This document shows positions 39,118 to 64,000 of a DNA stretch of 64,000 bases, one piece after another; within the stretch, counting starts at the first letter, position 1, and every line of letters starts with the position of its first letter. Below the pieces are notes generated by a model that was given only the letters and a program-made list of their open reading frames with translations, was not told the DNA's origin and did not search any database. The translations under genes and the position numbers were made by a program. Source of the DNA: an uncultured Thermoanaerobaculia bacterium (GTDB taxonomy: Bacteria; Acidobacteriota; Thermoanaerobaculia; Thermoanaerobaculales; Sulfomarinibacteraceae); NCBI GenBank assembly GCA_964423595.1, contig CAYRFI010000001.1, positions 21,598 through 85,597 on the forward strand, read 5' to 3'.

Positions 39118-39275
39118 CAGTATTTTAGCTCATTTGAGAGGATGTGTCCCGCGTGCCTGGTCCACCCACCCACCCTCCGCAAGAAGACCGTGGATCAACC
39201 CTGAGTACTACAACAGCCCATGGAATCCCTGCTAATGTTCCTGCGGAAGAGCATGTCTTGTCACGGGGGAAATCC

Positions 39276-44506: not shown

Positions 44507-44530
44507 GTGGGCATCTTAGCGCGAACACGA

Positions 44531-44638
44531 GGGCTTGAGGCGTGGGACTTGAGGCCTGATGTCTCGATCACCACACCCATAAGCCCTCACGCAATGGGCT
44601 GGGTGGGCGGGCAAGCCCCAAGCCACGGGTCTCAAGCC
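44531..44638 (-). repeat. Periodic-repeat long hairpin (CTTGAGG variant) between ggt and the dynamin gene
   Basis: GGGCTTGAGGCGTGGGACTTGAGGC (44531-44555) pairs in blocks with GCCCCAAGCCACGGGTCTCAAGCC (44615-44638): GGCTTGAG/CTCAAGCC, CGTGG/CCACG and CTTGAGGC/GCCCCAAG, the last with one A-C that becomes G-U on the - strand. Confidence 0.6.
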
Positions 44639-46336
44639 TCAGTATCCTGCTGCCATCCCGTCCTTCCTCGACTCCGTGGCGCCGGCGAGGACCCCGGTCT
44701 CCGGGTCGCGGTGGATGAGTTGGTAGCCACCAAAGGCCACCGGGTTGGTCTCCTGGATCGTGTGGCCCCTTCTTTCGAGGTCGCGGTAGACCTCGGGCGG
44801 CAGGCCCTTTTCCAGGTGGAGGACGCCACCCGAAGTCATTATCGTGCCCGTCGGCTGAGACGATCCTTCGTGGTAGAACCTCGGCGCGTCCCCGGCCTCC
44901 TGGAAATTCATTCCGAAATCCACCAGGTTGACGACAATCTGGACGTGCCCCTGTGGTTGCATGCCGCCCCCCATCAGACCGAAGGCGGTGTCCGGAGTCC
45001 CGTTCCACCCCATGAAGGCCGGGATGATCGTGTGGAAGGGCCGCTTGCCGGGCTCGAGGGCATTGGGATGCTCTGGGTCGAGACTGAAGAGGGCGCCCCG
45101 GTCCTGGATGCCGATTCCGACGTCTGGCACCACGTAGCCGGACCCGAAACCGGTGTAGTTGGACTGGATCAGCGACACCAACATGCCGTTTTTATCCGCC
45201 GTCACCAAAAAGGTGGTGTCGCCGTGGTCGAGCGCGGGGTTGCCGGGCTCGACGGTCTTGGCGGCCCGTTCCATGTCGATGAGCTTCGCCCGCTCGGCGG
45301 CGTAGCCTTTGTCGAGCAGTCCCTCGACCGGGACGTCGACGAAGGACATGTCCGCGTAATAGCGGGCGCGATCTTCAAACGCGACCTTTTTGGCCTCGAT
45401 CATCAGGTGCCAGAAATCAGTGCTGTCCCGCCCCATGGCCGCAACGTCGAAGCCCTCGAGGATGTTGAGCATCTGCAGTGCCGCCAGGCCCTGCGGGTTG
45501 GGCGGCAGTTCCCAGATCGTCAATCCCCGATAGGTCGTCGAGATCGGCTCGACCCACTCGCTCGTGTGGCTTGCAAAATCCGCCATCGAGAAGAATCCCC
45601 CGACCCCGTTGGAGAAGGCGATGATCTGCTCGGCAATTTCACCCTTGTAGAAAACATCGCGGCCACCAGCCGCGAGGCGATCGAGCGTGTGGGCGAGAGC
45701 CGGGTTGGCGAAGATCTCGCCCTCGGCCGGCGCCTTGCCACCAGGCATGAAGACCTCGGCGAAACCCGGCGTGTCCTTGAAGTGGGGGACGCTGCGCGCC
45801 CAACCGCCGGCGATCACCTGCGGCACCGGCGCCCCCTCGCGTGCGAGCTTTGCCGCCGGGGCCAGAAGGTCCTTCATCGGCAATCGGCCGAACTTCCCGT
45901 GGAGCTCGAACCAGCCGTCGGCACATCCCGGAACCGTCCACGAATAGACCGAGTAAACCGGGATGGTGCCGTCTTCTTCCGCGGGCACCTTGTCGATCGA
46001 CAACGACGCCGGCGCGCGGCCGGAGGCGTTGAGCCCGTAAAGCTGCTCGGTCTCGGGGTCCCAGACCATGGCGAAGAGATCCCCACCGAGACCGTTTGCG
46101 GTCGGTTCCAGAAAACCCAGGGCTGCGTTGACGGCGATGGCGGCGTCCACCGCCGAGCCCCCCGCCTTGAGCACATCGAGGCCAACCTGAACCGCCAACG
46201 GGTGGGCGGCGGCGACCATGCCATGGCGGGCGTAGGTCACCGACCGGGTACCGAAGGCACGGCCCTCTGGACGATCCGCGGCCGATGCAACCGTAGCTGC
46301 GGCAACGAGCAACACGGCGACAAAAACACGATGCAT
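44639..46336 (-). CDS. ggt: Gamma-glutamyltranspeptidase
   Basis: Signal MHRVFVAVLLVAAATVASA. The autoprocessing site ..HGDTTFLVTADKNGMLVSLIQSNYTGFGSG.. and ..GLMGGGMQPQGH.. are GGT hallmarks. Confidence 0.9.
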   Translation of the reverse strand: MHRVFVAVLLVAAATVASAADRPEGRAFGTRSVTYARHGMVAAAHPLAVQVGLDVLKAGGSAVDAAIAVNAALGFLEPTANGLGGDLFAMVWDPETEQLYGLNASGRAPASLSIDKVPAEEDGTIPVYSVYSWTVPGCADGWFELHGKFGRLPMKDLLAPAAKLAREGAPVPQVIAGGWARSVPHFKDTPGFAEVFMPGGKAPAEGEIFANPALAHTLDRLAAGGRDVFYKGEIAEQIIAFSNGVGGFFSMADFASHTSEWVEPISTTYRGLTIWELPPNPQGLAALQMLNILEGFDVAAMGRDSTDFWHLMIEAKKVAFEDRARYYADMSFVDVPVEGLLDKGYAAERAKLIDMERAAKTVEPGNPALDHGDTTFLVTADKNGMLVSLIQSNYTGFGSGYVVPDVGIGIQDRGALFSLDPEHPNALEPGKRPFHTIIPAFMGWNGTPDTAFGLMGGGMQPQGHVQIVVNLVDFGMNFQEAGDAPRFYHEGSSQPTGTIMTSGGVLHLEKGLPPEVYRDLERRGHTIQETNPVAFGGYQLIHRDPETGVLAGATESRKDGMAAGY

Positions 46337-46379
46337 GGCGACCTCCGCTGGCCGCCCATGTTACTCCATCTGGAGAGCC

Positions 46380-46850
46380 TCAAACGCCTTCGAGGACGAC
46401 CTCTTCGTACTCGAGCTCGAAGCGGTGCTTGTGCTTGGCCTCCTCTCCGGCAAGGGAGGTGAAGACGGCGGCCAGATTGGGGTCATCGGTCGCCTCGGCC
46501 AGCCCTTTGTAAAGCTTCTGGGCTGCCTGCTCCGCCTTGATCGCGACGATCAGCCCCTCGGCATAGGTCAGGGCGGCAGTGGGCTCGCGCTCGACCAGGT
46601 GTTCGGCGATGCCGAGGTCCTGCACCTGGTGAATGGTCAGGGCCGGCAGCTCGCCTGCCTTGATGCTCTCGAGGTGGCGTCGGTGACCATCCTCCTCCTT
46701 TGCAAACTCGAGGAAAACCTCCCGCATCCCCGGGCGATTCGCCAGATCCGCAAGATCGTTGTAGAGCGCCGCAGCCTCCTCTTCCCTGGAGATGGCATAG
46801 TCGAGGATTTCGTCGATATCGGCGAAGCCCATTTCGTCCCCCTGTTCCAC
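46380..46850 (-). CDS. Ferritin-like/rubrerythrin-family protein
   Basis: Two ExxH-type helices: ..FAKEEDGHRRHLES.. and ..LAGEEAKHKHRFELEYEE... Confidence 0.7.
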   Translation of the reverse strand: MEQGDEMGFADIDEILDYAISREEEAAALYNDLADLANRPGMREVFLEFAKEEDGHRRHLESIKAGELPALTIHQVQDLGIAEHLVEREPTAALTYAEGLIVAIKAEQAAQKLYKGLAEATDDPNLAAVFTSLAGEEAKHKHRFELEYEEVVLEGV

Positions 46851-49598: not shown

Positions 49599-50978
49599 TC
49601 AGTCGTCGAGGGAAGGTTCAATGCCGAGGCGGTGGATCATCTCGTTGAGGGTAGTGGGGCTCAGCTTGAGGAGCCCGGCAGCGCGCCGCTGGACGCCGCC
49701 CGACCGCTTGAGAGCCTCGCGGATGAGATGTTCCTGGAACTCCGCCACCGACGCGCGAAAATCGGTGCCGCCGGCTGGGAAAACGGTCATCGCCTGTTTC
49801 GAAGAAGGCTCGTTCCGTACCACCTGGGGCAGCTCGTCAATCTCGATCGAGTTGCCCCGGCACAGCACGACCGCCCGCTCAACGGCGTTTTCGAGCTCCC
49901 GCACGTTGCCCGGCCAGTGATAATCGGACAGAGCGTCCATGGCCTCCGGCGAAAAACCGTCGACCGCGCGTTGATTTTCCTCGCTGTAAATCCGCAGAAA
50001 GTGGGTCGCCAAGAGGGGAATGTCTTCGCGCCGTTCGCGGAGAGGCGGCATTTCGATGGTAATAACGTTGAGGCGGTAGTAGAGGTCCTCGCGGAATTCG
50101 CCGTTTTGAACTTTCTGCCAGAGATCGGTGTTGGTGGCGGCCACCAGGCGGGCGTCCACCGCCTTGGCTTCGACGCTGCCCACGCGACGGATCTCTCGTT
50201 CCTGGATCACCCGCAGCAGCTTGGTCTGAGTGTCCATAGAAATCGTTCCGACCTCGTCGAGAAAAAGGGTGCCGTTGTGGGCGGCCTCGAACAGCCCCTT
50301 GCGGGCGTTGATGGCTCCGGTGAAGGCGCCCTTAACATGGCCGAACAGGGTCGATTCCAAGAGGTCGGCGGGAATCGCGGTGGTGTGCACGGGGACAAAC
50401 GGCCCATCCCCTCGAGGGCTGAGTCGATGGACGGCTCGTGCCACCAACTCCTTGCCAGTGCCCGATTCTCCAACCACGAGAATGGTGGAGCGGGCCGGAG
50501 CGGCACGGCGCATGAGCTCGAAGACCTCTTCAATCCGCCTGCTGGTGCCGACGATCTCGCCCATTCCGTCGAGCCGGGTTCGCAGCTCGATGTTCTCGGC
50601 CAGCAGCGCACGCCGCTCGGCCGCTCGGTGCACCAGGTGCAGCACCTCTTCGTTCTTGAAGGGCTTCGGGACATAGTGAAAGGCACCCCGCCGCATCGCT
50701 TCTATGGCGGACTCGACCGATGAGTAGGCGGTGATCACGACCACCGGCAGGCGGGGATCGAGCTCCTTGATGTCAGGCAGCAGATCGAGACCGGATCGGT
50801 CGGGCAGCATCAGATCCAGGAGGACGACGTCGACCTCTTCCTCGCGCAGGATCTGCAGCCCGTCCGCGGCGGTCGTCGCCTGCAGATAGTCAAAGCCGTC
50901 GCCCTTCAGGAGCGACCCCAGCACGTCCTGAAGGACTGGCTCGTCGTCGATTACGAGGACGGTTCCGTTTCCTGCCAT
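49599..50978 (-). CDS. Sigma54-dependent response regulator (NtrC family)
   Basis: REC (VLVIDDEP...LLDLMLPDRSG), AAA+ (VVGESGTGKELVARAVH, GAFTGA, ESTLFGH) and a C-terminal Fis-type HTH (..RRAAGLLKLSPTTLNEMIHRLGI). Confidence 0.9.
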   Translation of the reverse strand: MAGNGTVLVIDDEPVLQDVLGSLLKGDGFDYLQATTAADGLQILREEEVDVVLLDLMLPDRSGLDLLPDIKELDPRLPVVVITAYSSVESAIEAMRRGAFHYVPKPFKNEEVLHLVHRAAERRALLAENIELRTRLDGMGEIVGTSRRIEEVFELMRRAAPARSTILVVGESGTGKELVARAVHRLSPRGDGPFVPVHTTAIPADLLESTLFGHVKGAFTGAINARKGLFEAAHNGTLFLDEVGTISMDTQTKLLRVIQEREIRRVGSVEAKAVDARLVAATNTDLWQKVQNGEFREDLYYRLNVITIEMPPLRERREDIPLLATHFLRIYSEENQRAVDGFSPEAMDALSDYHWPGNVRELENAVERAVVLCRGNSIEIDELPQVVRNEPSSKQAMTVFPAGGTDFRASVAEFQEHLIREALKRSGGVQRRAAGLLKLSPTTLNEMIHRLGIEPSLDD

Positions 50979-53629
50979 CGTTGAAGCCTGATCGTTGCGC
51001 AGGCGCCGCCGTGCTCCAGATTCTCGAGCCCGATTTCGCCGCCAAGTTGCGCGATCATATCACGCGTGATGGCGAGGCCGAGGCCGGTCCCGCCACGTTC
51101 TGTCTTGGTCGTGAAAAATGGTTCGAAGACCTTTTCACCAACCTCTTCGGGCACGCCGGGCCCGGAATCTTCGACCCGGATCTCGGCCCAATCGGTATCT
51201 CCTTCGACGAAGAACCGAACGACGCCGTCAGGCGGCGACGCCTCGATGGCGTTGCGGACCAGATTCCCGATTGCAAGTTCCAGCGGCCCGACAGATGCCC
51301 ACACCATCACCGGCTCTCCGGCCTCCGACACCTCGAGCCTCTCCTCGGCGCCCAGAGACCGCGCGGCGTCCTGAGCCGCTCGCACGGCGACTGTGGCCAC
51401 ATCGAGAACCATTCGACTGTCAGTTGAATCACGCACCATGGCGCGCAGATTGGAGACGATCCGCGAAACGCGAAAGCTCTGGTCAACGAGCTTCGAGACA
51501 ACGGTTGCCCGGGGATCGTCCTCCGGCGTCATTTTCCCGAGCATCTGAGCAAATGACGAGATTCCGGTGAGAGGGGTATTGATCTCGTGCGCGAGACCTG
51601 AGGCGAGACGGCCAAGGCCGGCGAGACGTTCCTGCTCGCGCATCCGGTCCTGAAGATCACGCAACTCGCTGACGTCCTGAAGCACGACTACCCTGCCGTT
51701 GAAGCTGCCGCTGTCGAGCTCGAGGACCGACACCGCCAAAATGACCCTCCGTGGAGGATCGGAGAACGTGCGGGCTTCGGTATTGACCGCGTGGACAGGG
51801 AGCTCGCCGCGCCATTCCTCGGGCAGGTCGACCAGGCTCCCGAGACCGAGACCGACCAGCGCCCCCGCTTTTCGGCCGAAGATGCCGGCGGCCTGCCTAT
51901 TGGCCGAAAGGATGTGGGCCGCAGCATCGCAGACCAGAATCGCCGCGGCCGAGGACTCGATGATTCGCTGGGTATTGGTGTGGAGGATCCGATACTCTTC
52001 GGCCTGGTGCCGGAGGTCGTCCAGATATCGTGCGCTTTCCAGGGCGAGCGCTGCTTGGGCGACAAATGTGGCAACCACCTCCTCTCCCTCCGATCCGAGG
52101 GGAAAGACCCCACGACGTAACCCGAGGTACAGCAGTCCGTGCACGATCCCGACGCGCTCGAGCGGCACCCGCACGGCATAGCCGAGTGTCGCCAGAGGGG
52201 CTTCGTACTCTCCGGGAAAATCCGTTTCGGGAACCTTCCCGGGCAGCCGCATCGGCAAAAGATCCTCGTCACCCGTGATGCGCTCGAAGCTCTCACCGGG
52301 AGTGAGCAAATAGGTCGCCACCAGATCGAACGCGAGACCTTCAGTCAATGTTTCCGACAGTCTTATGAGGACCTCGCGCGGGTCGGTCACCCGCGCCAGC
52401 TCACGACTTGCCCCGGTGAGCAACGACCGGGGCGCTGGCCGCCCCTGGTGGAGCCACTGATCGAGGAATCGCTCGACCCGCAAGCGAACCGGTTGTAACA
52501 GCACCACCAACAGAACGCCGGTGGCGAAAGCAAAGAGGTTACGGAGTGAACCCAGACCACCTGCGTATCTCAGGAGAAGGTGATTCGTGAGGGCGAAGAT
52601 GAAGCCGCCGGTGACGACTACCAGAGTCGCCGAGAGAGAGTCGCGACTGATTGGCTCGAGATCCCACAGGCGGTGACCCTTGAGTGCCGCCACCCAGGTC
52701 AAAGGAATGGCGCTGATTGGAAAGACCGCAAGCCATGAAAACGGCTCGAACGGAATACCAACCCATCGCGGGATCATGACCAGCACGAGAAACGGCGCCA
52801 GACCGACGAAGAGCCCGAGGGCGGCCCACTCGATCTGGCGCCGGATGCGCACCTCCCGGCCCGCCGTCCGCCAACGCCAGATCTGGAGGATGACGCCAAA
52901 TATCATCGATGACACGAAGAGGACCCTGAGCAGCGATGCCACGGCCGGCCACCATGCTTCGGCGTCCGCGAAGAAGACCGTCACCGCGGAAACTGCCGTA
53001 GCCGTCAGGGTCAAGAGGTCCCACATCCGCATCGACCGGTCGCGCTCGGGGAAGATAGCGAAGAACCTTACGATCAGGAACGGCAGGGCCGCCCCAACGC
53101 CGCGTCGAATGATCTGGAAGAGGAGTTCGGCGGAGGCGATGCGGTTGGGGACTGCTCCGAGAATCAGCGCCGCAACAGCGAGCAACAAAAAGGTCGCCGC
53201 CTCTCTTCTTCGGGTGCCCCACACCGCAACAAGTGCGCAACCCAGCCCGAGAAATCCGACCGCGGTCCGCGCGAGATAGACCGAGTTGAATTTTGGCGGA
53301 GGCGAGCGGAACCGACGCACCGAGATGGTGCCGTCGGCACGGCGAATCCTTAGATCGTGTTCTTCCCCGCCGGCGAGCATGAACGCTGGATCGTCCAACC
53401 GTTGAATCGATACACCATCGACCTCGATCACGGTGTCGCCCTCGATGAGACCCGAGGCCTCGGCGGTCGACCCGGTCGGGACCTCGTTGATCACCAACCC
53501 CTCCTCGACCCAGGAAACCGGAAAGTCGAGGCGATAAAAGCTCCGTACCGTGCGAATCAGGGATGTCCCTGACACGATCACGACAAAGACGGCGATCAAA
53601 GTCAGAAGAATGCGTTTCGTACGCATCAC
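50951..53629 (-). CDS. Polytopic sensor histidine kinase with an N-terminal extracytoplasmic PDZ domain
   Basis: TM1, then PDZ (..GLVINEVPTGSTAEASGLIEGDTVIEVDGVSIQ..), about 7 further TM helices, GAF/PAS-like regions, the H-box GRLASGLAHEINTPL, and ATPase motifs DSGPGVP and GTGLGLA. 28-nt overlap with the ntrC-like gene. Confidence 0.8.
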   Translation of the reverse strand: MMRTKRILLTLIAVFVVIVSGTSLIRTVRSFYRLDFPVSWVEEGLVINEVPTGSTAEASGLIEGDTVIEVDGVSIQRLDDPAFMLAGGEEHDLRIRRADGTISVRRFRSPPPKFNSVYLARTAVGFLGLGCALVAVWGTRRREAATFLLLAVAALILGAVPNRIASAELLFQIIRRGVGAALPFLIVRFFAIFPERDRSMRMWDLLTLTATAVSAVTVFFADAEAWWPAVASLLRVLFVSSMIFGVILQIWRWRTAGREVRIRRQIEWAALGLFVGLAPFLVLVMIPRWVGIPFEPFSWLAVFPISAIPLTWVAALKGHRLWDLEPISRDSLSATLVVVTGGFIFALTNHLLLRYAGGLGSLRNLFAFATGVLLVVLLQPVRLRVERFLDQWLHQGRPAPRSLLTGASRELARVTDPREVLIRLSETLTEGLAFDLVATYLLTPGESFERITGDEDLLPMRLPGKVPETDFPGEYEAPLATLGYAVRVPLERVGIVHGLLYLGLRRGVFPLGSEGEEVVATFVAQAALALESARYLDDLRHQAEEYRILHTNTQRIIESSAAAILVCDAAAHILSANRQAAGIFGRKAGALVGLGLGSLVDLPEEWRGELPVHAVNTEARTFSDPPRRVILAVSVLELDSGSFNGRVVVLQDVSELRDLQDRMREQERLAGLGRLASGLAHEINTPLTGISSFAQMLGKMTPEDDPRATVVSKLVDQSFRVSRIVSNLRAMVRDSTDSRMVLDVATVAVRAAQDAARSLGAEERLEVSEAGEPVMVWASVGPLELAIGNLVRNAIEASPPDGVVRFFVEGDTDWAEIRVEDSGPGVPEEVGEKVFEPFFTTKTERGGTGLGLAITRDMIAQLGGEIGLENLEHGGACATIRLQRWQETEPSS

Positions 53630-53878: not shown

Positions 53879-54913
53879 TCAAGCACCAAGGGCGCGATCG
53901 CTGTTTCCGACCTCGTATGGTCGATCAACTGTGATGACGCCGGCAAGGAGCATGTCCCTGACTGCGAGACCAATCTGTCCCCGACTGAACGGCAGCAGCT
54001 CGGTCAAGAGCCCCCATCCACACGGTTGGGCAGAAAGCTGGTGCCAGATCTGTTCGACAAGATCGGAATCGGGCTCCGAGTTCCATACCAGATGTCCGGC
54101 AGATGGGCGAAGGAAGGCGGTCTCCGGAACTGTAACCGCGAAGTGAGCGAATTCGTCCTGAATTCGCGCCGCCTCGATGAGCAACGGCTGTAACGGGAGG
54201 TACTGATCGGTTTCAGCTGGTGACGACAGGTTCGAAAACCTGAAGGTCCCCTGTTGCGGTGGTGAGTTCAAGATTTCCAGAAACGCCTCGGGGCCGGCGA
54301 GATTTCCGCAGAGGATGCGTCCGATCATCTTGCCCCGGGTGTGGATTGCGCCGAAGGTGTTGCCCTCCTGGTCGTTCACCTCGAGCACCCCTGTGGCGCC
54401 CGACTCGACGACGGTCTGGAGGATCGCCGGAAGATCGAAGTGCTCGAGCTTGCCGCGGAGATTGCTCCCGCTGTGCGCGCCGAGGTTGGCCACGGTCCCT
54501 TCGAGGCGCCGCGCCAGGCTTTGCAGATAGTGGAGAGCGAAATCTCGCGAGGTATAGAGTTGACGAAGCAAGACTGGACGCGGCCACTGCAGAGTGGTCC
54601 CTCCCTCGGGAAAGTGGGCCATGGAGTTGAAGGCGGTGCCGGTGAGGACCTTGGCCTCGGACATCGTCGATCCCGCTCCGATATAGGCCACCGGTTGCAG
54701 CCCGATCTCCCGGCTCTCCTCTCGACAGATCTCGACCACGCCATCAAGCACCAGGTAGAGGGCCGCCGGCACCTCACCGGGGCGAAAAAGCACACCCCCG
54801 GCCGGTTGCACATCAACCCCGCCGAGTCGTGCCAAAGACATCTGCTCGTCAGGGGGCATACCGTGAAAAAATGGGCAATCCCTGATCGCCCGCACGAGAT
54901 CCTCGAAGAGCAT
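53879..54913 (-). CDS. Cyclic-nucleotide-binding-like domain protein with a DUF4388 (PatA-N-like) domain
   Basis: The N-terminus ..CPFFHGMPPDEQMSLARLG...LFRPGEVPAALYLVLDGVVEI.. shows the CAP_ED fold pattern. The middle ..GKLEHFDLPAILQTVVESGATGVLEVNDQEGNTFGAIHTRGKMI.. is the DUF4388 signature. Confidence 0.65.
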   Translation of the reverse strand: MLFEDLVRAIRDCPFFHGMPPDEQMSLARLGGVDVQPAGGVLFRPGEVPAALYLVLDGVVEICREESREIGLQPVAYIGAGSTMSEAKVLTGTAFNSMAHFPEGGTTLQWPRPVLLRQLYTSRDFALHYLQSLARRLEGTVANLGAHSGSNLRGKLEHFDLPAILQTVVESGATGVLEVNDQEGNTFGAIHTRGKMIGRILCGNLAGPEAFLEILNSPPQQGTFRFSNLSSPAETDQYLPLQPLLIEAARIQDEFAHFAVTVPETAFLRPSAGHLVWNSEPDSDLVEQIWHQLSAQPCGWGLLTELLPFSRGQIGLAVRDMLLAGVITVDRPYEVGNSDRALGA

Positions 54914-55031
54914 TTCGAATTTGTATCACAAATCGCCCTGATGTGTTCAACCGATGACCAATTCAGAGGGCTGGCGCCCCAGTATTTTCGCTGAAACCCA
55001 CTCTCGGTCAGCCACCAGATACAATGGGGGG

Positions 55032-57368
55032 ATGGCACGCGACGAGAAGACCGCGGATGCTTTCCGGCAGGTGCTGCAGGAAGAGCTCCGCAACCCCGTC
55101 TATCTGACGCAGACGGAGGTTGACGGCGGTTGGTGCGATCTCTTCCCCGTGCTCGCGGCGTCGCTACCCGCCCCATTCCCCATCTTCGGGCGCGACGAAG
55201 AAAAGGTCGTCACATGGGGCTATCCGTTGCTCCTCTCGGAGGGGGTGCTCAAGCTGCGACGCGACCTCGAAGCCCTGGTCGAAGCCGAGGCGGAGTACCG
55301 ACTTCGCTCGCAAATCGGTGACGGCGACGACAAGCAGCGGATGATGACCCACCGTGACCGCTACCACAGGTCCATTTCTGCAACCTTGGAAAACGTCGTC
55401 ATGAACGACTACCACCGGGGGCTGGTGGATCTCTTTCTTCTCTTTCACACAGGCGAGGTCACGCGGGCCCTTGCAAAGGTGTCAAAGGCGGTCAATGGGC
55501 CGTATTCCGGCCCCGTGCGAGATGATGGCTACGACATACGCCAGGCCATCGCCACGGTCATCGCCGATCTCCTGCGACGTGCCGCGCTGACTGCAGTCGA
55601 CCATCTCAAACAGCTGGCAAGGGTGCAGGTCACCCCTGCTCTTACCCCACTGCTCGGTATCATCTGCCAGGACCAGTTGCTCCTCATCGATTCCCGTCCG
55701 CCGCAAGAGCTCTCTCAGCTCAGCTCGTATATGCAGGCGCGATTTCGACAGAAGGCCGAGGCCGTGGTCGAAGCCAACAACGAGGTGCTCGAGCGCCTCC
55801 GCGATCTGGTGGCACGAAGACCTGAGGTTGGCAGTCTCCTCCGGCTGGCGGTCGGCTCGAGTCTCAAGCTCGATCGACCTGAGTCCTTGCTTGAACCAAA
55901 GCTCTTAGACGCCATCCAAACCGCCGGACTCGCGGACACTCTGCACCTTTCGGTGATGCAGATCGACCTCCTGCACGACCTCGGTCTCCGGCTCAAGACG
56001 TTCGAGCTGCTCGCCGCATTGAGAAGACGCATACTGCCCATGCAGCGACAGGGAACAACCCTCGTGCTCAAGGGACGCTCCTCGGCGACACCAATTGCCA
56101 AGACCACCCGCCCCTACGATTTCACTGCGCCCGGCGTCGTCGACTCCTCGGTCCGCCGTTTCGGGCTGATCTACGATCTTTCGAACTTCACCACCGTCCT
56201 CGAAGAGGTCCGCAAAGCCGGGCGGATGGCCGAAGAGCGGGCGCTCCAATTCATGTATGTGTTTCAAAACCGCCTCGAGGCGATTCGCCTACGGCGTCGT
56301 CTGACCTTCGAGAAGTTCCTCGGCGACGGCGCTTTCTACACCTCACGGCGAGCCGTTCGGGTGATTGCGGCAGCGTGCGAAATCCAGCAGGTCTACGAGC
56401 AGCTCCGAAACATCGGCTTCCCGTTCAATCACGGCGTTCGCATCGCTCTCAACTTCGGCGTCTACCGCCTGCTTCCAATGTTGCATCCGGGCCCGGAGGC
56501 GAAGAGATTCGAGTTCTTCGGTCACGGCATTGTCGAGCTTGCACGCCTGACCACCGGCAAGAGCGCGCGCGAGGTCTCCGACATCGCCGAGTTTCTCGTT
56601 CATTCCGGCTATGACCCCGGGGAGGTCGATCTCTTCCTGTCACCGTTGGCCTCTGTCCGCAGCGGACAGGAGCAGATCTCGACCCGATCGTATGCCGCCA
56701 CCATCGACGGTCATGGCGAACTGGTCAACGAGGGCATCGTCGTCGCGATGCCATTCATCGAGGAGCTCGAGCTCGAGATGGAGATTTCGACTCTTGAGGT
56801 GACGACCTTCGACAGCCTCCGATGGGTGTTTTTCCCCGTTGATCCAGGAATGCCCGACACCCTGTATGTTGGCCTCCGTTATCTCGGAGTGGCCCGGCTC
56901 AAGGGTCTTCCACCCCAGGAGTTGGCGGAAGCGATCGTGTTGACGCAGACGCCGGAGGATCGCGAGGAGATCCCGTTCAAGGGTTCGCTTGTCGGCATTC
57001 TCCGTCACCACACCCAGGGCGCCCAGTCGCCGAGGGACGACTCGCCGACCACGGAAGAGACCATCGAAACAAATCTCCTGGTCATCACCTACCTGCTCGA
57101 GGATGGAAGGAGAAAGTGGATCTTCGGCGAATACAGGGATTCGGACGACGTTCTCCTGCACGCGATTCAGGTGCCCATTCAAACACCGGAGCTCAAGCCC
57201 GGGGAACCGATGGAAATGTGGCTCTTCCGTAATCGATTCGAACTCGCCAGGATTTACGAAAGCCTTCGGCGCGAGTCCGCAGGCATGGCGACCCCCCTGG
57301 CCACCCTCCGCAGCCGCCCGGGATATCTGGCGTGTTTCCTGGCGGCTCCGCATCGGGCCCTGGGATAG
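55032..57368 (+). CDS. 778-aa hypothetical protein with a central class-III nucleotidyl-cyclase-like (CHD) domain
   Basis: FGLIYDLSNFTTVLEE (F.D..GFT-like metal Asp), EKFLGDGAFYTS (GD metal Asp), VRIALNFGVY, FFGHGIVELARLTTG (G..VN.A.R-like, with Asn replaced by Glu). The N-terminal ~390 aa and C-terminal ~200 aa are unrecognised. Start at MARDEKT. Confidence 0.5.
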   Translation: MARDEKTADAFRQVLQEELRNPVYLTQTEVDGGWCDLFPVLAASLPAPFPIFGRDEEKVVTWGYPLLLSEGVLKLRRDLEALVEAEAEYRLRSQIGDGDDKQRMMTHRDRYHRSISATLENVVMNDYHRGLVDLFLLFHTGEVTRALAKVSKAVNGPYSGPVRDDGYDIRQAIATVIADLLRRAALTAVDHLKQLARVQVTPALTPLLGIICQDQLLLIDSRPPQELSQLSSYMQARFRQKAEAVVEANNEVLERLRDLVARRPEVGSLLRLAVGSSLKLDRPESLLEPKLLDAIQTAGLADTLHLSVMQIDLLHDLGLRLKTFELLAALRRRILPMQRQGTTLVLKGRSSATPIAKTTRPYDFTAPGVVDSSVRRFGLIYDLSNFTTVLEEVRKAGRMAEERALQFMYVFQNRLEAIRLRRRLTFEKFLGDGAFYTSRRAVRVIAAACEIQQVYEQLRNIGFPFNHGVRIALNFGVYRLLPMLHPGPEAKRFEFFGHGIVELARLTTGKSAREVSDIAEFLVHSGYDPGEVDLFLSPLASVRSGQEQISTRSYAATIDGHGELVNEGIVVAMPFIEELELEMEISTLEVTTFDSLRWVFFPVDPGMPDTLYVGLRYLGVARLKGLPPQELAEAIVLTQTPEDREEIPFKGSLVGILRHHTQGAQSPRDDSPTTEETIETNLLVITYLLEDGRRKWIFGEYRDSDDVLLHAIQVPIQTPELKPGEPMEMWLFRNRFELARIYESLRRESAGMATPLATLRSRPGYLACFLAAPHRALG

Positions 57369-58797: not shown

Positions 58798-61700
58798 CTA
58801 CTCCGTAACGCGCTCCAGCCGTGGGGGGCGGGTGGTCAGCTCGTCGATTGCCTGACAGAAGCGCGCGAAGGCTCGGTAGTTCTCCGGCGCGACCGTCTGT
58901 GCGGGCAGCTCGACGCGCAGCACCGACCGCTGGGTACCATCGACCGGCTCGAGCGTCTCGCTGACCGATCCCCACTCGGCATCGAGTCGTCGCGGATGCC
59001 TCTTTATCGGCGCCCATCCAGGCGGTGGCACGAGGTCAAGCTGGATTCTGCGCTCGATCGGCACCCGTATCATCACGGGATAGATGCGCTCCGGCAGGCG
59101 CGCCAGCATCGGCACCACCGGGTTGGCGAGAATCAGGCTTCGACACACGAGCTCGCCGTCCTCCGCGTCACACGCACCGGGAACGGTGATATCGAGATGG
59201 ATGGTCGCGCCATCCTCGGTCTTCTCGATTTCGCCATCGACCGTATCGGCTCCAGAAAACATGGAAAGTGCCATCTGCCGGTAGACCATACCGACCTGAT
59301 CCTCCGGAACGCTCTCCACCCTTTCGAGAAGCCTGGCGGCCTGACCGCCCCGAAGCGGCATGGTGAAGGCTATGTGCGCGCCACCATCGGCGTCGACGGT
59401 CGCGCGCACGGCAAACTCGTCGACCAGATCCGGGTTGGAAAAGGTCGGCAATTTTTCGATGCGCACCACCGGCTGACGGGGATTGGAAAGCGGCAACACC
59501 AGTCCGTCACTTCCCTGGAAAAGGACATGGATCGAGCCGACCCCGCGGCGTTCCTCGCGGCTGTCAAACCAGATCTCGTCACCGCCATGGGTTACGCGCA
59601 GCAGAGCCACCGGAAAGGCGTCGAGCGTCGGCACCTGGAGACGTTGATCTCGGTCGGTCCAGGGTCGGGTCAGGACAAGGTCGACATCCCACCCCGCCTC
59701 CACGAGCACGGCGGCGACGATACCGAGGCGGTTGCCGCGGCGGCGGCTGAAGCTTTCTCCGGCTGTTTCTGCCACCGAAATCTCAGCGTCCCCCCTGTCA
59801 ACGGTTTCCACCAGCGCATCGACCAGAGATTCGAGCTGCTCCTCGGGCGTCTCGCCGACCAGTACCTCCCGCTCCCACGCCCGGAGCTCCGGCGACGATC
59901 TCAGGATCGGCAACACCCGGTCGCGCACGGCGTCACCCACGTCCTGCCAGCTGACCCCGAATCCGTAGTTGAGCCATGGCATCAGGTCCTGGGCGGGTGG
60001 AGCGAAGGGTTCGGTCGGCATCGGCGGCACGTCCTCCGCCCGCCAATACAGCATCCGCAGGCCCTGCCACTCCTTCTCGCTGCGTTCCAGCCCCTCGAAG
60101 TTGCCGTCCACTTGAATATCCACCTCGGGCGGCACCAGCAGGATGTACTCGGAAAGACCGAAGGCGCGGTCGGGATCGGCAAAACGGTAGATGTAGGGCG
60201 GCAGGTGACCGTCACGCGATGCGCCCGTGGGACCGACCCAGGCCACATACTCTTCCTCGACCACGTCACCGGGTTCGACATCCGAGAGGGTGATACTGCC
60301 CTGACCCGGCTGGAGATCGCTCGGCACCACGAATTCGCCATCCGGTTTGAGGACTCTGATCTTGAAAACGTGGGCGTCCGGCAATGGCTGCAGCATCGAC
60401 GCTCGCCGCGCACCCACCGGCGTGTTAGCTCGGGTCAGCCCGTGATAGTAGTAGATGCTCGACCCGTCAGCGAATATCCGTTCCACCGCCTGGTCGAGAA
60501 GCAGCACAGCATCGACGTCTGCTCCGAGATCGCGATACTTACCGATGAAGTCGTGACCGTCGACGGCAAAGGGCGTGAAGAAAGGCTCGCTCCCGTTGCG
60601 CCACGACAACGTCAGGAGACGAAGATTCGATGGGTTCCGCTCGAGGGCGCCAGCGAGCGCAACATCCAGCGCCCCGCGGTCTTCGCCAGCCAACAGCAAT
60701 CCGAGCTCGTCGAAGATCCTGAGATCTCCCCATCGATTCCGTGCCTGCTCGAGCTCAGTGCGAGCAGCCTCGACATTTCCGTTCTCGAGGAGGAGGGTCA
60801 CCAACTGGACGTCGAGATCCGGGTCCAGAACTTCCGGTGCCAGACTTGCGGTCGCGGCCGCTGCTTCACCGACAAGACAGCTCGATGCCATCTGACCAAT
60901 CCACCGAGTCTCGATCGGGGTCGCAACGGCCAACGCGCGCAGCAGGGATCCCCGTTCACGCCACCGTTCGAGAGAGGCCAGGACCTCGAGCTGAAGATCG
61001 GTAACGGCAAGAGAACCCGGGAGGTCCGCTTCCAGCTGAGTGAGACCCTCCTCGGCTTCGCGCACCCAGCCCCTCCTGACCGTCTCACGGACCCAGGCTC
61101 GCAGTACGCGTGAATCGTTGGGGTAGTCGGTTACCAGTTGATCGATGATGTTTTCAGCGTCCTCGCTGCGTCCCTCACGTATCGCTATCGACCGCTCCAA
61201 GAGGCGCGAACCTGGAATGCCGCTCGCCTCCCTGAGGAGCTGACTGATGTTGCGAGCGCGATCAACTCCAGGCACCCCATTATCAGTCGCTATGAAATGG
61301 CGGGCCAGGGCAAGTGCCACCCACGGATTATCGGGATCGACCACACGGGCGCGATCAATCCACCGGTACTCGTCTTCCGGATCGCTGCGACCGCGCGCCA
61401 ACTGCGCGGCGAGAAGATACTCGGGCACCGGAGCATCCCCGTCCTGGAGGCGCCGCGAGAGCTCGGCGGAGGCAGGCGGCAGCGCGGCAGTGATTTCGGA
61501 GGCCGCCCAATTTTCATCAGCTCGATCGACCCTGGTCAGGCTCCTGGTTGGGTGCCCCTGGTCGTCGAGCACGCTGACGCGAACTTTCGGACCATCGGGC
61601 GACGCAACCTCCAGCCGCAGCCGGTGCACACCCCGAGCGAGGCGCAGGCGGTACCACGCGACTCCTGGATCTACCTGGCCGCAATATCGACGCTGATCGA

Positions 61701-62319
61701 CCGGGTGCCCGTCGACCTCGAGGTTGTAGCCCCCCCGCGCCTCGACCACCATCCAGCCGGTCGTCTCGGCAGCCACCTGCAAGGTCCACGAAACAAGAAA
61801 GACACCGTCAGCCATCATGGCCCGGGGCGGCCCGTGCCACGCGTCGGCGGTCCGCATCAGCAAACGGAACGGACCTGCCGGATCGGACCACATGGTACCG
61901 AGAGGCGGCAGATCCGAATCCAGCGGCACCACGTCGCGTTCCAGATCGAGGGTGCTGAAAACACCGAAAGCGCCTGCCATTTCGGCGGTTGCCAGCGCAC
62001 CGGCAGGAGGACGAGCCCCGAGGCTGGCCGCCACCTGCTCGAGAACAAACCCGAGTTCCGGATCGCGACCGTTGTCGGCGGCCGCCAACACCTCTTCCGG
62101 TTCCGGGAGGTCTTCGATATTGGCGAGCCACCAGGAGGCGGCCGCCAAAGCATCGGCACTGCCCGGGTCTGCGGCGATGGTCTGTAAGGCGAGTTCACGC
62201 GCGCTGTCGAGATCAAACTCCATCCCCGCCTGCCATACCTCCCACCACCCGGCGTTGACCGTGAGCGATGAAGCACAACAGACGACGATCAGGAGTGCGC
62301 GGCGCCACACAGTGATCAT
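58798..62319 (-). CDS. 1173-aa exported protein with TPR-like N-terminal half and DUF3857/DUF3858-like region
   Basis: Signal MITVWRRALLIVVCCASSLTVNA. Helical repeat region. ..SSIYYYHGLTRANTPVG...HVFKIRVLKPDGEFVVPSDL...EPGDVVEEEYVAWV.. resembles DUF3857. ATGA overlap with the upstream gene. Confidence 0.55.
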   Translation of the reverse strand: MITVWRRALLIVVCCASSLTVNAGWWEVWQAGMEFDLDSARELALQTIAADPGSADALAAASWWLANIEDLPEPEEVLAAADNGRDPELGFVLEQVAASLGARPPAGALATAEMAGAFGVFSTLDLERDVVPLDSDLPPLGTMWSDPAGPFRLLMRTADAWHGPPRAMMADGVFLVSWTLQVAAETTGWMVVEARGGYNLEVDGHPVDQRRYCGQVDPGVAWYRLRLARGVHRLRLEVASPDGPKVRVSVLDDQGHPTRSLTRVDRADENWAASEITAALPPASAELSRRLQDGDAPVPEYLLAAQLARGRSDPEDEYRWIDRARVVDPDNPWVALALARHFIATDNGVPGVDRARNISQLLREASGIPGSRLLERSIAIREGRSEDAENIIDQLVTDYPNDSRVLRAWVRETVRRGWVREAEEGLTQLEADLPGSLAVTDLQLEVLASLERWRERGSLLRALAVATPIETRWIGQMASSCLVGEAAAATASLAPEVLDPDLDVQLVTLLLENGNVEAARTELEQARNRWGDLRIFDELGLLLAGEDRGALDVALAGALERNPSNLRLLTLSWRNGSEPFFTPFAVDGHDFIGKYRDLGADVDAVLLLDQAVERIFADGSSIYYYHGLTRANTPVGARRASMLQPLPDAHVFKIRVLKPDGEFVVPSDLQPGQGSITLSDVEPGDVVEEEYVAWVGPTGASRDGHLPPYIYRFADPDRAFGLSEYILLVPPEVDIQVDGNFEGLERSEKEWQGLRMLYWRAEDVPPMPTEPFAPPAQDLMPWLNYGFGVSWQDVGDAVRDRVLPILRSSPELRAWEREVLVGETPEEQLESLVDALVETVDRGDAEISVAETAGESFSRRRGNRLGIVAAVLVEAGWDVDLVLTRPWTDRDQRLQVPTLDAFPVALLRVTHGGDEIWFDSREERRGVGSIHVLFQGSDGLVLPLSNPRQPVVRIEKLPTFSNPDLVDEFAVRATVDADGGAHIAFTMPLRGGQAARLLERVESVPEDQVGMVYRQMALSMFSGADTVDGEIEKTEDGATIHLDITVPGACDAEDGELVCRSLILANPVVPMLARLPERIYPVMIRVPIERRIQLDLVPPPGWAPIKRHPRRLDAEWGSVSETLEPVDGTQRSVLRVELPAQTVAPENYRAFARFCQAIDELTTRPPRLERVTE

Positions 62320-64000
62320 GGCGCCTCCAATCGCCGCCCCAGGTGTCGCTCGACCGTCACCAGGAACTCTCGCAATCCAGAGACGTCCCCCGCATCGTAA
62401 ATCCCTGCCTCAAAATGTAATTGGCCATCGACCCGGTAGCCGTTGCTCAGACTCTTTGGAGTGATCTTCAGCGAACCATATGCGGTGTTCAGCTCGACCT
62501 CAGCCGGTGTACTTTTGGGTGGGCGACCGAGATCGACTTCGAGTGTCCACTCGAGGTCGGGTCGCACATCGATCTTCAAAGGCCCGTGACGGGTCCCGCC
62601 GGGTACCATCCGCGCCGCCCAATCGAGCTTCCCGGGGTATGTGCCGACGCCCCCGCCGCTCGCCAGCGCGGTCTTTGCGATCGTGCCTTCGATTTCGACG
62701 ATCGTCGGATCTCGGCCGGGTACCAGCTGCAGCGTGGGGTCCCCGGTCAGCTGTGCCCCGGGAAACTGTTCCTGTAACCAGCGCGCGAACCGCTGCGGGT
62801 CACGACTGCCACCAAACCGCCCCCGCCGGACATCGGCCGCTTCACCGGTGTCGCGAGTCTCGATCGTGATCGCTACGTCGGAGGCGTCGCCGGGCCCGAG
62901 AGCGAAGCGTATTTTTGTACCCCCCGCACCGACAACCGGCGAGAACTGCGGTCGGCTCTGTGATCCATCGACGACCAGAACAAATGCGCCCTGGTCTATC
63001 GATGGCGGTGGAAAAACCGCGTGACCCGTGGCGGTGCCGTCGAGCCACAAGTCGTCTTCGGGGAGATAGACGATTGCGTGGTTGAAAACCTCGAGAACTG
63101 CGAGATCGTTGCTGACCGGGCCGAGATCAGCACTCCGAATCATCACCATGCGTGCCGGCACACCGATGACGTCAAGCAGCGCCACCAACAGCGCAGCCTT
63201 GTCCTTGCAGTCGCCGATGCGATGGTGGAGCACCCAATCCGCCGAAAAGGGCCGATAACGATGTTCGCCAAACTCGAGCCCAACGTAACGGATATCGTTG
63301 GTCACAAAACGATAGAGACGCCTGATTCGATCGAGACGATCGTCGACACCATTGACCAAGCGAAACGCGGTTTCTTCCACCTGCTCCGATATCCGCACCC
63401 TCGACGCCACGTGGCGCCCGTACCAATCCGCCAAAGCACCCCACTGCGGATGGTTGGAGTAGACCAGGTAGGGCGTCACCATGAGCTGCGGTGCGGCCGG
63501 AACGTCGGACGGGATCGCCGGAAGATCGCGCCATTCCCAACGCAGGCGAACGACACCGGAGTCGTCTTCTTCGCGCACCGGCTCGCCGTCAAGGTTGGCA
63601 ATCTCCCACTCCGGAAGAACTGCACCCGGACCCACCAACTCGACCTCCATCAACGCCACCGGGACCCCTCGGCCGAGGAGAATCAACCCGCCGTTGTACG
63701 GACCGGTCTCGTTGGCCTCGTCGGTCTCGGAGAGAACGTAAGCAACCTCGACGAGGTCTCCGTCTTCAAGCTCGTCAAATTGCAGGACCCTCAGTCGTGT
63801 GTCGTAGTAGAGGTTGAATTCGGGCTCTGACAGGCGGGGGGTGTCGCCCTGGCGGGCGCCGATTTCGGAGCCGTCGCGACGCAGGATTCTCGCGCGCAAC
63901 ACGCGCAGGCGTTGATTTTCAGCAACGTGGGCGATCTGTTGGTTGCGGAGCTCGTCAGCGCGAGCCGCATCGGTGATCAAGAACACCTGCTGAACCCTCT
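62316..64000 (-). CDS. DUF3857 plus transglutaminase-core protein (5' end beyond the window)
   Basis: ..VLHHRIGDCKDKAALLVALLDVIGVPARMVMI.. is the transglutaminase Cys core. The N-terminal part is DUF3857-like (..LRARILRRDGSEI...GDLVEVAYVLSE..). The frame stays open to the window edge. Confidence 0.7.
   Translation of the reverse strand, partial: RVQQVFLITDAARADELRNQQIAHVAENQRLRVLRARILRRDGSEIGARQGDTPRLSEPEFNLYYDTRLRVLQFDELEDGDLVEVAYVLSETDEANETGPYNGGLILLGRGVPVALMEVELVGPGAVLPEWEIANLDGEPVREEDDSGVVRLRWEWRDLPAIPSDVPAAPQLMVTPYLVYSNHPQWGALADWYGRHVASRVRISEQVEETAFRLVNGVDDRLDRIRRLYRFVTNDIRYVGLEFGEHRYRPFSADWVLHHRIGDCKDKAALLVALLDVIGVPARMVMIRSADLGPVSNDLAVLEVFNHAIVYLPEDDLWLDGTATGHAVFPPPSIDQGAFVLVVDGSQSRPQFSPVVGAGGTKIRFALGPGDASDVAITIETRDTGEAADVRRGRFGGSRDPQRFARWLQEQFPGAQLTGDPTLQLVPGRDPTIVEIEGTIAKTALASGGGVGTYPGKLDWAARMVPGGTRHGPLKIDVRPDLEWTLEVDLGRPPKSTPAEVELNTAYGSLKITPKSLSNGYRVDGQLHFEAGIYDAGDVSGLREFLVTVERHLGRRLEAP

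Follow-up and report, generated by a model that had tools for sequence, protein, structure and literature searches.

The stretch of DNA analyzed here (hereafter the window) comprises 64,000 nucleotides of contig CAYRFI010000001.1 (GenBank assembly GCA_964423595.1) from an uncultured bacterium of the Thermoanaerobaculia, a class of Acidobacteriota abundant in sediments and soils. The G+C content of the window is 60–70%, and the locus is 90–93% identical to Candidatus Sulfomarinibacter and Sulfomarinibacteraceae metagenome-assembled genomes, which belong to a marine-sediment group of Thermoanaerobaculia described previously (PMC8528874). In this study, we focus on two divergently transcribed genes of the window. 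The first (positions 55032–57368, forward strand) encodes a 778-residue protein whose central region resembles the catalytic domain of class III nucleotide cyclases, and the second (53879–54913, reverse strand) encodes a 344-residue protein in which a cyclic nucleotide-binding (CNB) fold is followed by a PATAN domain and a helical C-terminal domain. The family of the 778-residue protein represents a new form, so far unannotated, of an enzyme class already known; the second subject of this analysis is its relationship to the adjacent CNB–PATAN protein.

The extent of the smaller gene is given by the list of open reading frames (ORFs) and agrees with its Pfam domains, its AlphaFold2 (AF2) model and its orthologs. 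The longest form of the forward-strand ORF runs from 54954 to 57368 and would encode 804 residues, and the ATG at 55032 gives 778. Since most orthologs of the cyclase-like protein are 775–779 residues long and align with it from their first residues (MARDEK/MTRDEK), 55032 is the likely start. The 804-residue form, which begins at an upstream in-frame ATG (extension at 54954–55031), is used by some database entries (P0001, P0006); it is probably a mis-called start, because its 26 extra residues are absent from most orthologs and overlap the promoter-like spacer. A divergent gap of 118 bp (54914–55031) separates the two genes. An initial annotation, made from the sequence alone, had reported both ORFs, this gap and a set of short motifs, all of which were found in the places it gave; in the 778-residue protein, the motifs are FGLIYDLSNFT at residue 377, KFLGDGAFY at 428, VRIALNFGVY at 469 and FFGHGIVELARL at 495. 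Both proteins are predicted to be soluble, as neither sequence contains a hydrophobic stretch of membrane-spanning length.

The central region of the 778-residue protein

The family alignment of the 778-residue protein contained 41 diverse sequences, down to approximately 25% identity, and residues 356–645 were cut out of it as the central domain. The cyclase template set consisted of PDB cyclase domains (Cya2, entry 2W01, and the C1 and C2 domains of AC8 and AC9) together with 120 relatives of Cya2, all with PF00211. In hhalign, the central domain matched the 124 cyclase domains with P=1.5e-8 (95.5%) over 121 columns, corresponding to residues 379–509, and matched the five PDB cyclase sequences alone with P=8.9e-6 (83.1%). 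A profile comparison against an independently built alignment of 35 cyclase sequences gave P=1.1e-6 (91%), and one register was common to all three comparisons. The controls, namely an unrelated alignment, column-reversed cyclase domains and GGDEF domains, gave P values of 0.064, 0.23 and 0.35, respectively; the last of these ruled out GGDEF as an alternative palm-type domain. Because the three cyclase comparisons are significant in one register, against control values of 0.06–0.35, the homology of residues 379–509 to the β1–α4 core of class III cyclases is well supported at the level of sequence profiles. The proposal of the initial annotation that the central region is a cyclase homology domain, in the motif register that it put forward, is upheld by the values of 1.5e-8 and 1.1e-6. 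By hhalign, column mapping and invariance, the core is placed at residues 377–509 (56160–56558, forward strand).

The key residues of the core are D382, K428, D432, R470, N474, E494, G497, V501/E502 and R505. D382 and D432 occupy the two metal-binding Asp columns (Asp in 103/124 and 122/124 templates, respectively), and both are conserved in all orthologs, in keeping with the metal-binding contexts recognized in the initial annotation. K428, three residues before the glycine of the GD pair, lies on the first specificity column, where Cya2 and its relatives have Glu and the C1 domain of AC8 has Lys; in general, Lys here marks adenylyl cyclases and Glu guanylyl cyclases, the second specificity residue being Asp or Thr for ATP and Cys, Ser or Gly for GTP. 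E494 lies on the second specificity column, which is Asp in all four mammalian domains (C1 and C2 of AC8 and AC9) and Gly in Cya2; Glu is kept here in at least 90% of the 41 sequences, with Asp in some distant members. R470 is on the column of the phosphate-binding β4 Arg, Arg in all four mammalian domains, and R505 is on the column of the α4 transition-state Arg (Arg in 121/124 templates). Throughout the 41 sequences, Y381, D382, E427, K428, G431, D432, G433, R470, G497, E502, R505, K510, K624 and G625 are invariant, and conservation within the protein peaks in the cyclase core, with a mean top-residue frequency of 0.59 versus 0.38 and 0.21. Such a pattern points to selection acting on the active site rather than to its decay. 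Judged by these columns, the domain is divergent and not degenerate, as it had been called at first, since the metal-binding Asp residues, the specificity Lys, its acidic partner and both Arg residues are conserved family-wide; the canonical ribose-orienting Asn alone is missing. Because the Lys/acidic specificity pair is adenine-type, ATP is the likeliest substrate and is favored over an exotic one. The non-canonical nucleotide specificity suggested earlier is not borne out by the pair, Lys/Glu, which is close to the adenine-type Lys/Asp.

The core is set within a larger, three-part protein. It is preceded by an all-helical N-terminal domain (residues 1–355; 55032–56096, forward strand; from AF2 and the alignment), presumed to be regulatory, which carries the conserved motif FPxLAxxLPxPxPIFGxDE, in which P46, P48 and G63 are nearly invariant. 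AF2 models most of residues 64–340 with a predicted local distance difference test (pLDDT) score of approximately 85–95, and this 355-residue domain has no Pfam, NCBIfam, PDB or Foldseek match. The core is followed by a family-specific insert of approximately 50 residues after α4 (residues 510–560; 56559–56711), which opens at the invariant G509–K510 (TGKS) and is modeled as two helices (512–524 and 529–543); residue 509 is the last one aligned by hhalign, and nothing equivalent to the insert is present in cyclase domains. Residues 561–645 (56712–56966) are the probable C-terminal part of the cyclase domain, as indicated by a weak alignment and by the invariant residues L564, N566, G619, K624 and G625, and they contain the motif LRxLGxAxLKGL. 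The protein ends with a β-rich domain (residues 646–778; 56967–57365), modeled at a pLDDT of approximately 80, which is without a match to known domains in Pfam, NCBIfam or Foldseek and has an occupancy of just 0.51 in the 41-sequence alignment. Thus, the cyclase domain is indeed embedded between two further regions, as had been noted, although with other dimensions than the approximately 390 and 200 residues first given: the domain extends from about residue 377 to about 645, leaving flanks of approximately 375 and 135 residues.

The family is unannotated and is centred on Thermoanaerobaculia. An exhaustive hidden Markov model (HMM) search of 1.84 billion representatives yielded 203 clusters at 50% identity, and relatives were found in 477 GTDB species genomes. 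The clusters include a subfamily of approximately 670 residues, 25–30% identical, which matches profile positions 35–640 only, ends shortly past the region of residue 645 and lacks the C-terminal β domain.

A number of observations count against the assignment of residues 377–645 as a cyclase domain, or against its activity. The 778-residue protein has no match in Pfam, including PF00211, the model by which the initial annotation had expected its domain to be checked, nor in NCBIfam or PADLOC; PF00211 was matched in only one of the 41 central domains (E=0.037), and the same scans of ten distant relatives gave nothing useful. No cyclase came up when PDB sequences were searched with phmmer and hmmsearch, whether the query was the protein itself, the profile of the full-length family or that of the central domain. 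AF2, run with a 30-sequence alignment, is confident for the N-terminal helical and C-terminal β domains and poor for residues 342–514, with pLDDT below 50 at 342–394, 427–435 and 464–514. Foldseek with this model returned no match at E<=1e-3; the weak part of its list is enriched in class III cyclases, such as Ma1120 (probability 0.57–0.75, TM-score <=0.56) and the cyclases of T. brucei. The tail of the domain, with K624 of its LKG, aligns in the right order to the terminal KG motif of cyclases (V.pKG..pv.iy.v), albeit weakly (P=0.013), and deletion of the insert before hhalign did not extend the alignment into the second half of the domain. Finally, when the hhalign register is fixed at G497 and R505, with no gap between them, the Asn column (Asn in 123/124 templates, four positions before R505) is occupied by V501, followed by the invariant E502. 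The claim that the canonical Asn is missing therefore stands, while its supposed replacement by Glu does not, E502 being one residue later. Absence of the canonical Asn lowers activity in the cyclases that have been studied. The lack of Asn and the presence of the insert do set the domain apart from the class III norm.

These departures give some weight to the alternative of a pseudo-cyclase, that is, an inactive domain with the cyclase fold that serves as a nucleotide-binding or as a dimerization or regulatory module, the real activity residing in the N- or C-terminal domain. The lost Asn, the 50-residue insert past α4, a divergence so extreme that PF00211 fails and the poor AF2 confidence within the domain would all be explained in this way. 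Against this, the metal-binding Asp residues, the Lys, both Arg residues and the Lys of the LKG motif are invariant down to approximately 25% identity in the most conserved region of the protein, and this conservation fits selection on a working active site; we regard the pseudo-cyclase as quite improbable. A chance resemblance, in which the motifs mimic those of cyclases in a region that is no cyclase domain, would account for the empty Pfam, NCBIfam, PDB sequence and Foldseek results, yet it is very hard to reconcile with three low P values in a consistent register, controls of 0.06–0.35 and aligned catalytic columns that are all invariant.

From the observed homology and residue conservation, we infer that the 778-residue protein would act as a soluble homodimer with two symmetric active sites at its interface, where a nucleoside triphosphate, most likely ATP, would be converted to a 3′,5′-cyclic nucleotide by two-metal catalysis. 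Gating of this activity would fall to the large helical domain at the N terminus, perhaps together with the β domain at the C terminus. If the enzyme is active, the family defines a cyclase subfamily that is missed by current domain models and is present in hundreds of Thermoanaerobaculia species; its two uncharacterized flanking domains could be new sensory or regulatory modules. With the Asn lost, the specificity Asp replaced by Glu and a hairpin inserted, the family also offers a natural test of how much drift a class III active site tolerates before it ceases to work.

The CNB–PATAN protein and the intergenic region

The CNB domain of the 344-residue protein, which is CAP-effector-like, occupies residues 1–142 (54488–54913, reverse strand). 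In Foldseek, it has 596 PDB matches at E<=1e-3, the best of them (1e-9) being GlxR, CRP and PKG, and in a profile search against PDB sequences it is recognized at E=6.7e-6. Residues 153–254 (54152–54457) form the PATAN domain, for which PF14332 (DUF4388/PatA_N) gives E=1.5e-9 and covers profile positions 1–120 of 122. The CAP-effector-like domain and its fusion to DUF4388, both recognized in the initial annotation, are thereby confirmed; of the two HMMs named there for this protein, PF14332 scores above its cut-off (38.4 bits versus 25), and PF00027 (cNMP_binding) scores 26.0 bits, just below its cut-off of 27.5, although most orthologs carry PF00027. The C-terminal domain consists of three helices and a strand (residues 283–330; 53924–54067), modeled as helices 283–295, 300–306 and 311–323 and strand 327–330 with a pLDDT of approximately 90, that of the whole model being 82. 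G299, W300, P308, G312, L316 and R319 are invariant in this domain in an alignment of 24 orthologs, and the modeled secondary structure can be read as winged-helix-like.

The same 24 orthologs show that the phosphate-binding cassette of the CNB domain is degenerate. In the window, it reads MSEAKVLTGTAFNSMA (residues 84–99; 54617–54664, reverse strand): E86 is kept, the preceding Gly is Ser, and Phe95 stands three positions after Gly92, which we take to be the position of the Arg of PKA and CAP. Leu or Phe occupies this position in all 24 orthologs, and in an HMM alignment to PDB entry 5d1i, the Arg of TTRLTGAV lands on the same Leu/Phe column. The earlier statement that the phosphate-binding Arg is absent thus holds for every ortholog. 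Orthologs at 53–55% identity have the cassette LGESKVITGTAL[KR]SQA, in which Gly-Glu is kept and Lys/Arg-Ser lies one position past the canonical Arg site. In the clade of the window, this becomes [SAC]E[AS]K.. with N, S, T or A in place of the Lys/Arg (residues 82–99 of the small protein; 54617–54670, reverse strand). By this comparison, the Sulfomarinibacter lineage is apparently the one in which the receptor-like site has diverged further, and it is in the organism of the window that the canonical cyclic-nucleotide contacts are weakest.

In Synechocystis, the PATAN domain provides output by binding PilB1 and PilC, motor proteins of the type IV pilus (bioRxiv 10.1101/2021.06.11.447907). No pilus genes were found among the ten neighboring ORFs scanned at 39144–63986, the rest of the window not being annotated.

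The divergent intergenic region (54914–55031) carries a −10-like hexamer by each start codon. TACAAT at 55020–55025 lies 6 nt before the ATG of the cyclase gene at 55032, and TACAAA at 54920–54925 on the reverse strand lies 6 nt before the ATG of the 344-residue gene at 54913. Upstream of the cyclase gene, TA[CGT]AAT was present in 40/40 syntenic loci (L001–L057), ending 6 nt before the start in most of them; the spacer is otherwise not conserved between loci. The transcripts of the two genes may be leaderless. A search for σ54 −24/−12 elements gave 24 matches versus 20 expected, none of them in the intergenic region. A 6-3-6 palindrome, ATTTGTATCACAAAT (54919–54933), was considered as a shared operator and rejected, because homologous spacers do not conserve it and because it coincides with the −10-like hexamer of the 344-residue gene.

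Gene neighborhood and the linkage of the two genes

Directly downstream of the CNB–PATAN gene, and in the same direction, lies the gene for a histidine kinase (50951–53629, reverse strand), which has PDZ, PAS, HisKA and HATPase domains by Pfam, multiple transmembrane segments as read from its translation, and a syntenic position. It is followed, with a 28-bp overlap, by the gene for an NtrC-type σ54-dependent response regulator (49599–50978, reverse strand; REC, Sigma54_activat and HTH_8 by Pfam). The architecture of the kinase, in which PDZ stands ahead of the apparent membrane-spanning segments and of PAS-HisKA-HATPase, is unusual, and is conserved across the lineage together with the σ54 regulator. 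The gap between the CNB–PATAN and kinase genes is 249 bp in the window, approximately 20–75 bp in several measured loci (L003, L007, L008, L009, L020) and larger in others. The genes form a block in the order σ54 response regulator, PDZ kinase, CNB–PATAN, cyclase (divergent from the first three), RsgA and a 1170-residue DUF3857 protein, which is conserved at 54–55% identity. The CNB–PATAN gene most likely belongs to the two-component module, as we infer from this arrangement.

The neighbors identified by Pfam in the window also include MnmA and UDG. At one end of the window, a gene for a 1173-residue protein with TPR and DUF3857 (58798–62319, reverse strand) overlaps the next gene by 4 bp; the latter (62316–63986, reverse strand) encodes DUF3857 with a transglutaminase core and runs past the end of the window. 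Both DUF3857 genes are kept beside RsgA in all syntenic loci. Elsewhere, an ORF for a dynamin-family GTPase (575 residues; 42779–44506, reverse strand) overlaps a 785-residue ORF on the forward strand (44105–46462) that has no Pfam match. Either one or the other is probably spurious, since long antisense ORFs are common in GC-rich sequence.

Linkage was assessed in 80 loci from species-representative genomes, searched with diverse queries and sampled as neighborhoods rather than whole genomes; spurious antisense ORFs (cluster c1), which arose from crude ORF calling in GC-rich loci, were set aside. The CNB–PATAN gene is adjacent in 39/43 loci in which the cyclase is at least 50% identical to that of the window, and in 0/40 loci below 50%. 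The adjacency always occurs within one larger conserved gene block (response regulator, kinase, CNB–PATAN, cyclase, RsgA). Because the other neighbors are conserved too in the group at or above 50% identity, the adjacency is inseparable from general synteny. Two loci (L054 and L060) have the kinase and regulator beside the cyclase with the CNB gene missing.

More distant relatives keep other company. In the clade at 36–50% identity, a gene for a ComM/YifB-like Mg-chelatase ATPase (a name read from the sequence) precedes the cyclase gene in the same orientation, the two often overlapping by 4 bp (L046, 5353–6936; L053, 436–2055; L059, 4897–6954; L063–L067, L071 and L076), and a PhoH/PIN-like ATPase, named in the same way, follows it in seven loci. 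Among eight contigs of the most distant relatives (25–30% identity), none has a CNB neighbor, and in 4/8, PurC (SAICAR synthetase, PF01259) is encoded directly downstream on the same strand, at a gap of −4 to +62 bp (L083, 10022–10954; L084, 10325–11236; L088, 8092–8988; L089, 3141–4079), in at least two different wider contexts. This adjacency possibly reflects a link to purine metabolism, or else lineage synteny. The two genes of the window are neighbors through lineage-specific synteny, and the cyclase family is broader and older than the pairing.

The linkage data bear directly on the view of the initial annotation that the two genes are a possible private second-messenger pair. According to this explanation, the cyclase product would be sensed specifically by the adjacent CNB–PATAN protein, and this protein, by way of its PATAN and helical domains, would in turn act on, for example, type IV pili or the adjacent kinase and regulator. 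The divergent adjacency in 39/43 loci spanning 50–96% identity, the true CNB fold of the neighbor, the Gly-Glu and the nearby Lys/Arg-Ser of the 53–55% clade and the intact catalytic set of the cyclase are all in its favor. However, the adjacency is confined to a sub-lineage and is never seen outside a wholly syntenic block; the two loci without the CNB gene retain the kinase and regulator, and the distant relatives adjoin PurC, ComM or PhoH-like genes instead. In addition, the phosphate-binding Arg is Leu/Phe in all orthologs, the clade of the window has also lost the Gly of Gly-Glu and the nearby Lys/Arg, and the spacer holds no conserved shared operator. A dedicated pair is therefore unlikely, although it fares better than the other alternatives to the reading that we prefer.

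A bolder version holds that the family is a new class III branch, whose altered active site, with Val-Glu in place of Asn, the Lys/Glu pair and the insert after α4, makes a non-standard nucleotide, and that this product is read in the Sulfomarinibacter lineage by the Arg-less CNB–PATAN protein to control the PDZ kinase/σ54 regulator or a pilus-type motor. We consider this a long shot; if true, it would amount to a new messenger–receptor pair, and the PurC neighbor of distant relatives would then hint at a link to purine-nucleotide metabolism.

Taken together, the observations are best explained, and somewhat more probably than by all other accounts, by a divergent, ATP-using class III cyclase that lies beside a CNB–PATAN adaptor of a histidine kinase/response regulator module, the two not being established as a dedicated pair. 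The 344-residue protein would be a signaling adaptor, most likely in the PDZ kinase/σ54 regulator module, and its CNB domain may or may not read the cyclase product. The result adds to an established enzyme class and sets right a reading that made too much of gene adjacency, and current understanding is not overturned; it should be of moderate interest to specialists in cyclic-nucleotide signaling, and its general surprise is low.

Comparison with known systems

Compared with class III cyclases such as Cya2 (2W01), Ma1120 of M. avium (4WP3) and the C1/C2 domains of mammalian adenylyl cyclases, the 778-residue protein has the same order and spacing of motifs. It shares with them the metal-binding Asp residues, a Lys at the first and an acidic residue at the second specificity site, and the β4 and α4 Arg residues, and its C-terminal LKG-type motif is in the right place, according to the weak alignment. 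Like homodimeric bacterial cyclases, it is predicted to be soluble and has all the residues on one chain. It differs from known class III enzymes in lying below the detection of PF00211, in having Val on the Asn column with an invariant Glu next to it, in the second specificity residue, which is Glu and not Asp or Thr, and in the two-helix insert of approximately 50 residues after α4, while its N-terminal helical and C-terminal β flanks match nothing known.

The adjacency of a class III-type cyclase gene and a CNB-fold gene also recalls Pycsar anti-phage systems, in which a pyrimidine cyclase is paired with an effector activated by a cyclic nucleotide. This general pairing is the only point of likeness, and a Pycsar reading, which the initial annotation had itself judged unsupported, is effectively refuted: no PADLOC model, PycC models included, matches either protein or two distant relatives, the candidate effector (CNB, PATAN and a small helical domain) is soluble and without a transmembrane or TIR domain, the genes are divergent and not operonic, their neighbors are housekeeping and two-component genes (MnmA, RsgA and UDG among them) in a core-like chromosomal position that is stable and not patchy across the lineage, and the Lys/Glu specificity pair is of the purine (adenine) type.

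The 344-residue protein shares the fold of the CNB domains of CRP/FNR proteins and of PKA/PKG (GlxR, M. tuberculosis CRP and PKG, at approximately 1e-9), as well as the cassette Glu, E86. It differs from them in the Leu/Phe found in place of Arg in orthologs and in Ser-Glu instead of Gly-Glu; where a CNB fold lacks this Arg, its ligand is often a different one or there is none, as in CooA, FNR and CprK. Its output is also distinct, being PATAN and a small helical domain in place of the HTH of CRP or a kinase. The PATAN/DUF4388 domain is shared with PatA-type regulators (PixE, PixG and PatA), in which the input is a REC domain C-terminal to PATAN. In the 344-residue protein, which has no Response_reg match in the Pfam scan, the input is instead a CNB domain, N-terminal to PATAN, and thus represents a new input for an output domain that has so far been studied mainly in the control of cyanobacterial pili.

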